A stretch of 5,326 nt of DNA from the IMG/VR virus record IMGVR_UViG_2713896785_000005; one strand, written 5' to 3'. This document shows positions 1 to 1,631 of this stretch, in pieces (positions within the stretch are counted from its first letter, which is position 1; each line of letters starts with the position of its first letter). The notes under the pieces are model-generated. The model made no database searches, had not been told where the DNA came from, and saw only the letters and a program-made list of their open reading frames with translations. A program made the translations under genes and the position numbers. Source of the DNA: a virus (taxonomy: Duplodnaviria; Heunggongvirae; Uroviricota; Caudoviricetes).

Positions 1-462
1 GACATTCTCGACCAGTTTCTGGATGAAAAGGAAGGTAACCACACCACGGCATACCGTGATGGCGCGGGTATCTGGACCATCTGTCGCGGTGCCATTCTGG
101 TGGATGGTAAACCTGTCGTCCCGGGCATGAAGTTGTCGAAGGAGAAATGCGACCAGGTTAACGCCATCGAACGTGATAAGGCGCTGGCATGGGTGGAGAA
201 AAACATCAAAGTGCCATTGACCGAACCCCAGAAAGCGGGGATCGCGTCATTCTGTCCGTACAACATTGGTCCCGGTAAGTGTTTCCCGTCNACGTTTTAC
301 AGACGAATTAATGCNGGTGATCGNANNGGNGCNTGNGAGGCGATTCGCTGGTGGATTAAGGACGGTGGCAGAGACTGCCGTATTCGTTCAAACAACTGCT
401 ACGGTCAGGTATCCCGTCGTGACCAGGAGAGCGCGCTGGCGTGCTGGGGTATCGACAGATAA
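1..462 (+). CDS. R: Phage endolysin (T4-lysozyme-like, GH24-type), 5'-truncated by the window edge
   Basis: Frame 1 is open from base 1 to TAA 460-462. Translation DILDQFLDEKEGNHTTAYRDGAGIWTICRG... shows the E-x8-D-x5-T catalytic triad spacing of lysozyme-type endolysins and ends ...CWGIDR. From memory it closely matches the endolysin of E. coli lambdoid/Stx-type prophages. Ambiguous bases at 291-336 give X residues. The N-terminus (about 30 aa, likely a signal-anchor) is outside the window. Confidence 0.9.
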   Translation, partial: DILDQFLDEKEGNHTTAYRDGAGIWTICRGAILVDGKPVVPGMKLSKEKCDQVNAIERDKALAWVEKNIKVPLTEPQKAGIASFCPYNIGPGKCFPXTFYRRINXGDXXXXXEAIRWWIKDGGRDCRIRSNNCYGQVSRRDQESALACWGIDR

Positions 463-551: not shown

Positions 552-591
552 AAAAACCCCGTTTGTTGGCAGCAAGCGGGGTTTTGTTTTT
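552..591. terminator. Rho-independent terminator, apparently bidirectional
   Basis: Stem 557-565 (CCCCGTTTG) pairs with 573-581 (CAAGCGGGG), one G-U pair, 7-nt loop 566-572. A5 run 552-556 upstream and TTTTGTTTTT 582-591 downstream, so a U-tract follows the hairpin on either strand. Lies about 90 nt after the endolysin stop. Confidence 0.7.
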
Positions 592-656
592 ATGGCAGTA
601 AGCTATGGGAGGCTGCCTTGATTGATTTTAGCAAACTGATTAGGGAGTTGCGACTC

Positions 657-752
657 ATGATTAGTCAATTACCAAACTGGAAATTTTTGCTGGTCTGGAG
701 CATCCCTTTTTTATGGGTAGTATCCCAGTTAATTGTGGCAATTAAGGGGTAG
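657..752 (+). CDS. Small hydrophobic peptide 1 (31 aa), hypothetical
   Basis: ATG 657 with GGGAG (643-647) 9 nt upstream; MISQLPNWKFLLVWSIPFLWVVSQLIVAIKG, stop TAG 750-752. Trp-rich, one predicted transmembrane segment. C-terminal half weakly resembles the C-terminus of peptide 3. The longer tabulated ORF 540-752 would run through the terminator hairpin, so the internal ATG is preferred. Confidence 0.3.
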   Translation: MISQLPNWKFLLVWSIPFLWVVSQLIVAIKG

Positions 753-754
753 CT

Positions 755-886
755 ATGTCAGACAAACTCATAACGCCGGCAAAGGTCCTGTGTGTGATTG
801 TCGGTATTTCATTTTCACTAATGCTGGTTGCTCTTTTTCTGTCCCTCGCCTGGGTGATGTTGTCTTCGTCGGGGCTGCTGGGGTGA
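755..886 (+). CDS. Small hydrophobic membrane peptide 2 (43 aa), hypothetical
   Basis: ATG 755 with AAGGGG (744-749) 5 nt upstream; MSDKLITPAKVLCVIVGISFSLMLVALFLSLAWVMLSSSGLLG; stop TGA 884-886 overlaps GTG 883 (GTGA). N-terminus MS(D/A)(K/E)LI and the IV-x-I motif are shared with peptide 4. Below the length cutoff of the supplied ORF track. Confidence 0.45.
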   Translation: MSDKLITPAKVLCVIVGISFSLMLVALFLSLAWVMLSSSGLLG

Positions 887-1005
887 CAGTGACTGATGAC
901 ATCAGCAGAGCGCTGGCTTTTGCTATTAAGTGGGTGGCTGTTGGTATTGCTGTGTCTCCGATGCTGTATGGGCTGGCAAAACTGGTCATTGCGCTGAAAT
1001 CGTGA
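883..1005 (+). CDS. Small hydrophobic membrane peptide 3 (about 40 aa), hypothetical; start uncertain
   Basis: Frame 1, ...DISRALAFAIKWVAVGIAVSPMLYGLAKLVIALKS, stop TGA 1003-1005. The frame is supported by codon-by-codon comparison with peptide 4: differences are mostly third-position (gcg/gca, gct/gcc, gtg/gtc, aga/cgg both Arg). Start could be GTG 883 (overlapping the peptide 2 stop) or GTG 889; peptides 2 and 3 could be one roughly 83-aa protein split by a sequencing frameshift. Confidence 0.45.
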   Translation: MTVTDDISRALAFAIKWVAVGIAVSPMLYGLAKLVIALKS

Positions 1006-1016
1006 ACTTTAAAAAG

Positions 1017-1103
1017 ATGAGTGCTGAACTTATTCGGGCAATGGCATTTGCCATTCGTATTGTGGCCATTGCTGTTCTGGTCTGGGCAATCCGTTGGTGG
1101 TGA
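1017..1103 (+). CDS. Small hydrophobic membrane peptide 4 (28 aa), hypothetical paralog of peptide 3
   Basis: ATG 1017; [28 protein letters not shown]; stop TGA 1101-1103 is one nt before the Rz ATG at 1105. Core [15 protein letters not shown] aligns with ALAFAIKWVAVGIAV of peptide 3 with synonymous codon changes. No obvious SD; A-rich leader (CTTTAAAAAG). Confidence 0.45.
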
Positions 1104-1104
1104 T

Positions 1105-1410
1105 ATGAACCGTGTTCTGTGTGTGGTGATTATTGTCCTGCTGGTAGCCTGTGGTGTGCTTAGTCTGGGGCTGAATCATTACCGTGATAACGCCATAACC
1201 TACAAAGCGCAGCGCGATAAAAAAGTCAGTGAGCTGGAGCTGGCAAATGCAACCATTACTGATATGCAGCNNNNNNNNNNNNNNNNNNNNNNNNNNNNNN
1301 NNNNNNNNNNNNNNNNNNNNNNNNNNNNNNNNNNNNNNNNNNAAGGGGCACAGGACTATATCCGCACTCAGTGTACTAAGCAGGCTTTTTATTATCCGGA
1401 GGATGTATGA
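1105..1410 (+). CDS. Rz: Rz i-spanin (inner-membrane spanin subunit); central part unresolved (72 N at 1271-1342)
   Basis: ATG 1105; [55 protein letters not shown] has an N-terminal TM helix and the [16 protein letters not shown]...LANA-ITDMQ block I recall from lambda Rz. After the N-run the C-terminus [21 protein letters not shown] resembles the lambda Rz C-terminus (...GTQKYINEQCR). Stop TGA 1408-1410. The visible length (101 codons) is short versus about 150 for lambda Rz, so the N-run probably under-represents the real sequence. Confidence 0.85.
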
Positions 1411-1631
1411 AGAAATTACAGGTAACGGTAAAACCTTTTCAGGGAACAATTCCGTTCCGTGTTTTGCAACATGGCCGTGTTCTGCTTGAAGAGGTGTTCA
1501 GAGGTAAATGCACTGAATGTTATTCACGAACATATGAAGTGAATGCCACGCATGAAGAATTCACCGTTGAGTGTGTGATGAATACTGATAAATGCCGAAT
1601 GGTATCCGCTGAATTACAGCCAGTGTGTTGA
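1407..1631 (+). CDS. Hypothetical small Cys-containing protein (74 aa), possible zinc-ribbon-like
   Basis: ATG 1407 overlaps the Rz stop (ATGA); GGAGGA at 1398-1403. [74 protein letters not shown] has CxxC at residues 35-38 plus Cys 56, 62 and 74. No family recognised from memory. Confidence 0.5.
   Translation: MKKLQVTVKPFQGTIPFRVLQHGRVLLEEVFRGKCTECYSRTYEVNATHEEFTVECVMNTDKCRMVSAELQPVC

Follow-up and report, generated by a model that had tools for sequence, protein, structure and literature searches.

What occupies the 642 bp between the endolysin gene (R) and Rz in a lambdoid prophage whose lysis genes would normally be neighbours? The question is raised by the late region of an Escherichia coli prophage (Caudoviricetes; IMG/VR record IMGVR_UViG_2713896785_000005), a stretch of 5,326 nucleotides, here called the window, that comes from a gapped draft with runs of N. 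The endolysin gene stops at position 462 and Rz starts at 1105, and an original prediction had placed between them a tandem family of genes for small hydrophobic peptides, with holin or antiholin-like, type I toxin-like or abortive infection functions among the roles considered. The premise that R and Rz are normally adjacent holds in the K-12 prophages DLP12 and Qin, where the two genes overlap by 4 nt and no curated small gene is present at the junction.

The interval contains an operon-like chain of four genuine small genes, open reading frames (ORFs) 1 to 4, each of which encodes a peptide with one predicted transmembrane helix. These peptides are drawn from a pool of short, recombining membrane-peptide genes that is found at the endolysin-spanin junction in the late operons of Enterobacteriaceae prophages.

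Four small genes chained into Rz

Apart from the start of ORF1, which is considered below, the four ORFs have the positions and lengths of the original prediction (Table 1), and the tight linkage that it described is evident at each junction. The ORF1 stop (TAG) and the ORF2 ATG are 2 nt apart, the ORF2 TGA overlaps a GTG of ORF3 as GTGA, 11 nt separate the ORF3 stop from the ORF4 ATG, and the ORF4 TGA lies 1 nt before the Rz ATG, so Rz appears to be translationally linked to ORF4. Each peptide also has the single membrane-spanning segment that had been predicted, with one 19-residue hydrophobic stretch apiece (Kyte-Doolittle mean 1.9-2.9), and the C-termini of ORF1 to ORF4 are KG, LLG, KS and RWW, respectively. 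The PGAP annotation calls three of the four ORFs as hypothetical proteins and misses ORF1, and it extends ORF3 to 51 amino acids from a CTG at 850, which is an unlikely start.

Selection on these frames was assessed with diverged copies from E. coli genomes and phages, for which Nei-Gojobori ratios of nonsynonymous to synonymous substitution rates (dN/dS) were pooled for each frame. In the named frames, pooled dN/dS was 0.39 for ORF2, 0.13-0.15 for the ORF3 core, 0.32 for ORF4 and 0.23 for the N-terminal 26 codons of ORF1, and pairwise comparison of the window with two other loci (L014 and L008) gave 0.17-0.29 for the C-terminal part of ORF1. In every family the named frame had the lowest pooled dN/dS and zero stops, as the claim of protein-level selection would have it, and the other sense frames contained stops and had dN/dS values from 0.6 to >1 (~1 for ORF2). 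The antisense frame -1, which shares wobble positions with the named frame, also gave low values (0.28-0.48), as is expected for a shadow of the sense frame. Among near-identical haplotypes that contain all four ORFs, there were 4 synonymous changes and 1 singleton nonsynonymous change in the ORFs compared to 16 variable sites in positions 463-548, the most variable part of these haplotypes.

The minus strand has a 73-amino-acid open frame at 768-989, antisense to ORF2 and ORF3 and sharing their wobble positions, that encodes no hydrophobic peptide, has no database support and is probably a shadow ORF or artefact.

Relatives of ORF2 form 103 database clusters, nearly all from E. coli, and the 43-amino-acid length is almost fixed down to ~65% identity. 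In phage 933W an ORF2 homolog lies directly before Rz; its start codon has changed from ATG to ATA, for which an ATG one codon upstream compensates. The 933W-type homolog in strain Sakai is the novel gene XECs191, a predicted inner-membrane protein for which values of 30.0 reads per kilobase per million (RPKM) for RNA, 12.6 RPKM for ribosome profiling (RIBOseq), a ribosomal coverage value of 0.43 and a coverage of 0.55 were reported from growth in LB medium (Hücker et al. 2017, PMC5597208). Scanning IMG/VR with the ORF2 alignment added little divergence, since the ORF2 proteins at all the loci returned were 98-100% identical. Two further ideas about ORF2 were rejected, namely that it is a duplicate of the Rz N-terminal helix (KVLCVIV compared to RVLCVVI; p = 0.12, not significant) and that a programmed -1 frameshift joins it to ORF3, for which there is no slippery heptamer and the gene order is reversed elsewhere.

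Because the named frames have the lowest dN/dS and no stops, the length of ORF2 is fixed, the modules recur in other arrangements (see below) and an ORF2 homolog has a RIBOseq signal, the proposal that all four ORFs are genuine coding genes rather than chance ORFs is well supported.

Table 1. Features of the lysis region, in coordinates of the window
Feature	Position	Strand	Product or sequence	Remarks
SAR-type (signal-anchor-release) endolysin (lysozyme R, R21/933W type), 3' part	1..462	+		Start lies upstream of the window
Intrinsic-terminator hairpin	553..592	+		Stem of 15 bp with GC core, T tract after it; first small ORF begins ~30 nt further on
ORF1, candidate long form	618..752	+	44 amino acids, TTG start, MIDFSKLIRELRLMISQLPNWKFLLVWSIPFLWVVSQLIVAIKG	Predicted amphipathic N-terminal helix, then transmembrane helix; phrog_6632
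ORF1, candidate short form	657..752	+	31 amino acids	Peptide 1 of the original prediction; internal ATG (codon 14), preceded at 9 nt by its own AGGGAG
ORF2	755..886	+	43 amino acids, MSDKLITPAKVLCVIVGISFSLMLVALFLSLAWVMLSSSGLLG	PGAP WP_001280935.1; phrog_4906 (E = 4.5e-21)
ORF3	883..1005	+	40 amino acids from GTG 883 or 38 from GTG 889, (MT)VTDDISRALAFAIKWVAVGIAVSPMLYGLAKLVIALKS	phrog_1115, phrog_3246, phrog_4493
ORF4	1017..1103	+	28 amino acids	PGAP WP_032140280.1; phrog_4493; C-terminal IRWW-stop abuts the Rz start
Rz i-spanin, Rz1 embedded	1105..1410	+		PGAP 'lysis protein' WP_044683506.1; 495 nt in the identical genome

A mosaic pool of modules at the endolysin-spanin junction

The description of the four genes as one tandem family needs to be divided. 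ORF1, ORF3 and ORF4 are mosaic relatives, but ORF2 (phrog_4906) is a separate family unrelated to these three. The proposed paralogy of ORF3 and ORF4 is evident from their N-terminal halves (local alignment score 47 compared to 22-23 +/- 4.4 for shuffles, p <= 0.001), from the fact that both match phrog_4493 and phrog_3246 and, more clearly, from longer homologs (GKYKRILLRLTMKNGLELKAPVTDDISRALAFAIKWVAVG... aligned to GKYKRFFLRLSIMKGIEVETPASLDLTRAAAFAIRLVAVAV...). Across 19 aligned codons there are 9 identical residues, 6 of them with different codons, and the proportion of synonymous sites that differ (pS 0.69) exceeds that of nonsynonymous sites (pN 0.35); the synonymous excess that had been noted is real, but the statement that the codon differences are mainly synonymous was too strong, as 10 of the 19 residues differ.

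Database searches found 69 relatives of ORF3 in E. coli and Salmonella, with an invariant core and variable N-termini, one of which (P0048) has an ORF3 body that carries an ORF4-like N-terminus. Homologs of ORF4 are found at four other loci (L007, L010, L011 and L013) and in phage GER2. A single 554-bp ENA contig (P0062) encodes the N-terminal half of a pinholin (to ...VSPSQW) fused to an ORF3 C-terminal half, VAVGVAVSPMLYGLAKLVIALKS, and could have arisen by natural recombination at a short motif that both share, or else by misassembly.

ORF1 belongs to a family of ~45-amino-acid proteins, M(I/V)DFSKLIRELRxMxEKLPNWKFLLIW...(I/V)RWW, that is found in Salmonella, Providencia, Citrobacter, Enterobacter and Klebsiella and, more distantly, in Pseudomonas phages, and that has just 38 representatives at 50% identity among 1.84 billion proteins. 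AlphaFold2 predicts for this family helices at residues 4-16 and 21-43 with a short loop between them (pLDDT, the model's local confidence score, 79). Its members have C-termini of two types, either '...IRWW', as in ORF4, or '...L(I/V)(V/I)A(I/L)K(G/S)', as in ORF1 and ORF3, and an hhalign comparison of the C-terminal halves of ORF3 and the ORF1 family gave P = 3e-4 over 24 columns with a probability of 40%. By these alignments, ORF1, the Enterobacter 45-mer, ORF3 and ORF4 represent the four combinations of two N-terminal and two C-terminal types.

In H-19B, SPN3UB and Enterobacter prophages, the 45-mer (MIDFSKLIRELR...IRWW) is the sole gene between endolysin and spanin, and at another locus (L009) its 5' end is replaced by an ORF3-type insertion, leaving MAEKLSTWKF...IRWW. 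The simplest reading of these forms is that the array in the window arose via insertion and recombination inside one ~45-amino-acid gene. The small genes directly 5' of Rz lack annotation in the records of 933W (L003, NC_000924.1 27438-27580), H-19B (L108, AF034975.3 17557-17685) and SPN3UB (L110, 45559-45693).

At least one module is present in 1944 of 5426 complete E. coli genomes, and the full R-1-2-3-4-Rz array in 589 of them. Other arrangements include R-ORF1-ORF2-Rz; R-ORF3-ORF2-Rz, in which the order is inverted relative to the window; R-ant-ORF2-Rz, found in 933W, P13374 and most phages that carry Shiga toxin (Stx) genes; R-KilAC antirepressor-truncated ORF1-ORF2-Rz, to which PhiR5_1 adds ORF3 and ORF4; R-ORF3-hybrid(1/4)-Rz; and R-x-ORF3-y-ORF4-Rz at locus L007, where x and y stand for two more small membrane ORFs that lack annotation. 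Thus prophages differ both in whether they have an insert between R and Rz and in what it contains; the original prediction had raised the first of these as a point to check. The two extra ORFs at L007 (NZ_CM129854.1, 1314-1466 and 1631-1780) encode hydrophobic peptides of 50 and 49 amino acids that are absent from the PGAP annotation, and an ATGA overlap couples the second to the ORF4 homolog there. The pool therefore includes more small membrane-peptide modules than the four in the window.

These arrangements also bear on the proposal that the ORFs are pieces of one known gene broken by frameshifts or sequencing errors, for which the draft state of the window, with its N runs, gives some reason. 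Bases 440-1260 are 100% identical to NZ_CP027544.1, from a human stool isolate, and 590-1110 to many other complete genomes, including those of enteropathogenic E. coli (EPEC) E2348/69 and sequence type 131 (ST131) strains. The modules are intact in other orders and singly, no slippery site is present at the ORF2/ORF3 junction, no match was found in Pfam, NCBIfam or the PDB, and among 5.8 billion sequences no longer protein spans the ORFs, save for alternative start calls. The many module arrangements therefore rule out a single frameshifted gene, and the probability left to a broken gene is negligible; neither a broken known gene nor a fragment of a known lysis gene was found.

The ORF1-type module lies between endolysin and spanin in four types of cassette: pinholin with SAR lysozyme; Phage_holin_8 and holin_3_7 with a GH19 endolysin; Phage_holin_8 and holin_3_7 with an M15 peptidase; and holin_3_1 with a 161-amino-acid enzyme, followed by a DUF2514 Rz. 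What its contexts share is a late operon, and within such operons the endolysin-spanin junction is strongly preferred. In M15 cassettes at three loci (L010, L011 and L013, ~1377-1782), an ORF4-type peptide of 37-61 amino acids with an RWW end is followed by a 49-63-amino-acid lipoprotein (lipobox LVGC) in place of an Rz-type spanin, and the outer-membrane lysis step of these prophages looks atypical.

The rest of the window is that of a lambdoid late region, in the order lysozyme 3' part, 642-bp interval, Rz, a 74-amino-acid ORF, an HNH endonuclease and the terminase small and large subunits. The lysozyme is a 100% match to WP_001092850.1 in NZ_CP027544.1; the full protein in that genome has an N-terminal SAR-like segment, MNTKIKYGLSAAVLALIAAGA, and its upstream holin gene encodes an S21-type class II pinholin. 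Stx phages have been reported to combine a pinholin with a SAR endolysin in this way (PMC8136144). Downstream of the endolysin stop, the non-coding positions 463-548 are 82-91% conserved even across loci with different inserts, the 463-522 portion is kept in M15-type cassettes as well, and this segment may be a recombination boundary of the variable insert. The Cys-rich 74-amino-acid ORF (1407-1631, plus strand; phrog_2571, unknown function) has an ATG that overlaps the Rz stop (ATGA), and cassettes of other types have it 3' of their spanin or lipoprotein genes (L005 2259-2483, L010 1920-2165). A run of 72 N (1271-1342) replaces 261 nt of Rz/Rz1 that are present in the identical complete genome; a run of 50 N (1675-1724), with the 22-mer ggtattgtcgccgtattcctgc repeated on either side of it, stands for no sequence at all and is a scaffold-join artefact; and single n's are also found at 291-336.

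Expression of the array and a possible role in lysis

The first small gene lies behind an intrinsic-terminator hairpin with an A tract on its 5' side that makes it potentially bidirectional. A hairpin of the same design, but with different stem sequences, is found 30-40 nt upstream of every ORF1-type gene examined, in six contexts (13 pairs in RNAalifold, 5 with compensatory changes), and at one locus (L005) it also precedes an ORF3-like first gene. Positions 400-1300 contain no plus-strand promoter-like sites, and a terminator scan found none between the array and Rz. Because there is a strong upstream terminator, no credible promoter after it and a spacing of 0-11 nt between ORFs, expression of the array is probably late and Q-dependent. 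The peptides would be made solely from the Q-antiterminated late transcript, via coupled translation that runs on into Rz, and the hairpin would insulate the array and keep it silent in the lysogen.

The same hairpin could end a leftward transcript, with its A tract upstream and T tract downstream, which is among the grounds for considering a type I toxin-antitoxin-like function, in which each peptide, or at least ORF1, is a membrane toxin checked by an antisense RNA that ends at the hairpin. The small size and hydrophobicity of the peptides fit this reading, as do the unusual DNA-level conservation across genera of the first 39 nt of ORF1 and one minus-strand promoter-like site (761-732). However, one such site in 400-1300 is the number expected by chance (1.0), and it is not clearly conserved at locus L104; Rfam gave no match at E <= 1 and no Pfam toxin family was matched; the conserved, charged N-terminal helix is atypical for such toxins; and the ORFs are operonic, chained into Rz behind a terminator in the late operon. 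The type I toxin reading is thus very improbable, and that of abortive infection or defence likewise finds no support, with no PADLOC match.

The original prediction had the frame and stop of ORF1 right, but the ATG at 657 is less likely to be its start than the TTG at 618, which has a GGGAGG Shine-Dalgarno sequence 5 nt upstream. Homologs in Salmonella, Providencia, Citrobacter, Enterobacter and Klebsiella are 44-45 amino acids long, and the 44-amino-acid form is the one annotated in E2348/69. Because of the homolog lengths, the PHROG profile and the Shine-Dalgarno sequence, TTG 618 is favoured as the most likely start.

The internal ATG is nonetheless present in 9/9 ORF1-type copies that were read as DNA, at codon 14 with a GGGAG-type motif 9 nt upstream in the 8 enterobacterial ones and at codon 13 after a weaker GAGG in the one from a Pseudomonas phage. 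A Shine-Dalgarno-like motif precedes both starts in every copy. Eight of the 9 have GTG or TTG as the upstream start, M14 is invariant in the family alignment (A2), and the first 39 nt of the gene are nearly invariant as DNA across genera. The TTG/GTG and internal ATG could be a dual-start arrangement. A regulatory RNA fold between the hairpin and ATG 657 was considered and rejected, as the fold there is no better than shuffles (z = -0.7).

The explanation that we favour combines pool-derived genes, a split founding module, late coupled expression and an accessory role in lysis, and as a whole it is held with even confidence. The founding module would consist of the intrinsic-terminator hairpin, a Shine-Dalgarno sequence and a ~45-amino-acid gene, with an amphipathic helix (DFSKLIRELRxM...), a transmembrane helix and an IRWW-stop beside Rz. 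In this prophage the module would have been split and expanded through insertion and recombination, such that ORF1 would be its 5' half with a new C-terminus, ORF4 its 3' end, ORF3 an ORF4-type N-terminal half joined to an ORF1-type C-terminal half, and ORF2 an unrelated cassette. The peptides would insert into the inner membrane at lysis as dispensable accessory factors and, through helix-helix contacts, might tune the timing or efficiency of holin action, endolysin release and spanin action, independently of the type of holin or endolysin carried. We infer this accessory role in the membrane events of lysis from the late-operon, lysis-linked position of the module in four unrelated holin/endolysin cassette types, and it is reasonable to suppose that lysis timing may be involved, a role that the original prediction had named as possible.

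Several points weigh against this explanation. No experiment or homology links any of the peptides to lysis, and many functional cassettes (lambda, DLP12 and Qin) do without them. The sequences behind the dN/dS values are few and short, and some are not independent of one another; the RIBOseq signal of XECs191 is low and comes from uninduced cultures, with reads that may map to several prophages; late-only expression is deduced from sequence; and ORF3 has two candidate GTG starts (883 and 889) between which a choice must be made. At one locus (L004, NZ_CP027435.1 1529-1660), in a prophage flanked by insertion sequence (IS) elements, the ORF1 homolog has a premature stop (TTA to TGA) 7 codons before the usual end. 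In Citrobacter, Klebsiella and a Pseudomonas phage, moreover, ORF1-type modules lie amid genes for the tail or baseplate, so the lysis-cassette position is preferred, not obligatory.

The last point is also an argument for moron-type cargo, in which the peptides benefit the lysogen or infected cell apart from lysis (for example, by superinfection exclusion at the inner membrane or modulation of host membrane proteins) at a junction that merely tolerates insertions. The ORF1-type module between tail genes in three phages, the unrelated cargo (ant/KilAC antirepressor genes) that the junction also takes, the patchy presence of the modules and the low RIBOseq signal without induction are all consistent with this proposal. 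On the other hand, a terminator directly upstream with no promoter after it reverses the promoter-gene-terminator layout of a classical moron, the chain of ORFs runs into Rz, PADLOC has no match and most contexts seen are endolysin-to-spanin. We regard moron-type cargo as unlikely.

The coupling to Rz could instead be the reason that the ORFs persist, if insertions parted R from Rz and a translated chain of ORFs, whose peptides have little function, must bring ribosomes to the start of Rz. However the array is composed, 1-11 nt separate its last ORF from Rz, the ribosome-binding region of Rz falls within the 'IRWW-TGA' end, and R and Rz overlap by 4 nt where the insert is absent. Such a relay would not constrain amino-acid sequence, yet the ORF3 core has a dN/dS of 0.13-0.15, conservation of the N-terminal helix in the ORF1 family extends from E. 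coli to Pseudomonas and the module exists away from Rz too, all of which make a relay improbable as the explanation.

A more specific form of the lysis proposal is that the ~45-amino-acid gene underlying ORF1 and ORF4 is a so far unrecognised, holin-type-independent lysis regulator, terminator-gated and Q-dependent, that was diversified by intragenic insertion into the E. coli arrays of ORF1-4. Its dual start would give long and short forms whose effects, on when the membrane is permeabilised or on spanin/endolysin activation, are opposed or graded; the long form, from a weak GTG/TTG, would have a charged amphipathic cytoplasmic helix, and the short ATG form would be approximately the bare transmembrane helix. 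This dual-form regulator is a speculative proposal, and its probability is low.

These peptide genes sit in the lysis cassettes of phages that release Shiga toxin (933W, H-19B and Sakai prophages), and modules are present in over a third of complete E. coli genomes, unannotated in the classical records and 'hypothetical' elsewhere. If the peptides tune lysis timing or membrane events, then burst size and toxin release would be affected, and the holin-endolysin-spanin scheme would gain a new class of component; if the dual-form regulator is real, Stx and related phages would have a tunable 'lysis clock' and hence tunable toxin release. If they prove dispensable, start sites and missed genes can still be corrected in thousands of genomes. 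The locus is also a natural example of the birth and diversification of small membrane-protein genes, by recombination within a small gene whose pieces are under purifying selection. In the searchable literature we found no description of the mosaic structure of the family, of the proposed single-gene ancestor between R and Rz in classical Stx phages, or of the conserved upstream terminator with its candidate dual start.

Comparison with known systems

No named family fits the peptides, and the original prediction had not matched them to one either. For all four, Pfam and PADLOC gave 0 families at E <= 1, NCBIfam nothing relevant and PDB sequence searches no informative match. Full-length hidden Markov model matches were to PHROG families of unknown function (ORF1, as its 70-amino-acid call, phrog_6632 at 1.2e-12; ORF3 at 6.4e-25; ORF4 at 3.8e-6). 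RefSeq, UniProt and PHROGs already list all four, identical in sequence, as hypothetical proteins (including WP_001280935.1, WP_042004856.1 and WP_032140280.1), but these entries split one mosaic family into several clusters and use over-long start calls (70 and 90 amino acids). In the literature searched, which included few subscription journals, the R-Rz interval and small lysis-cassette proteins of this kind are not described beyond XECs191 in the RIBOseq catalogue.

The peptides differ from spanins (Rz/Rz1, u-spanin) in that they are too short and have no lipobox Cys context, and a bona fide Rz follows at 1105. In size and hydrophobicity they resemble type I toxins (Hok, Ldr, Ibs, TisB, ShoB, ZorO), but they match none of the families searched (Hok, Ldr, Ibs, TisB, ShoB, Fst and others), have no known antitoxin RNA and are encoded by operonic, translationally coupled late genes. 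Like lambdoid morons (e.g. lambda bor and lom), they are extra genes between otherwise adjacent genes, patchy in presence and mobile between contexts; unlike morons, they have a conserved terminator upstream rather than downstream, and a promoter of their own was not found.

The S21 pinholin/antiholin of phage 21 (class II, PF04971), the holin type of this prophage, is likewise a small inner-membrane protein of the lysis cassette, and it acts through interactions of transmembrane helices. The two candidate starts of ORF1 are reminiscent of the holin dual-start motif, but they are 13 codons apart as opposed to 2-3 in such motifs. S21 has two transmembrane domains (the SAR TMD1 and the pore-lining TMD2) and a charged C-terminal tail, whereas the peptides have one helix and no such tail, and an ORF1-type gene also accompanies holins unrelated to S21.

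The ORF3 helix (KWVAVGIAVSP) resembles pinholin TMD2 (QWVAIGVLGSL), with a score of 40 compared to 21 +/- 4.4 for shuffles (p = 0.003, uncorrected, in ~24 comparisons). Mimicry of TMD2 by ORF3 was rejected as an explanation, given an hhalign probability of 3.8% over 11 columns for the ORF3 family against the pinholins of this prophage group and the unrelated holins found alongside the ORF1-type gene, and is kept as a low-probability idea. The holin or antiholin-like reading therefore lacks support from homology, with no Pfam match.

A functional parallel is the Mu 'releasin' gp25 (DUF2730/PF10805), an accessory membrane protein needed for SAR-endolysin release that has 99 amino acids, an N-out/C-in helix and a 73-amino-acid cytoplasmic domain (PMC9239132). 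The peptides, at 28-45 amino acids and with no DUF2730 or other Pfam match, are unrelated to gp25, and they are found alongside GH19 and M15 endolysins as well (as classed by enzyme family). Since gp25 is not a holin, spans the membrane once and is encoded within a few genes of a SAR endolysin and spanins, it nevertheless provides a precedent for extra membrane factors in phage lysis cassettes.

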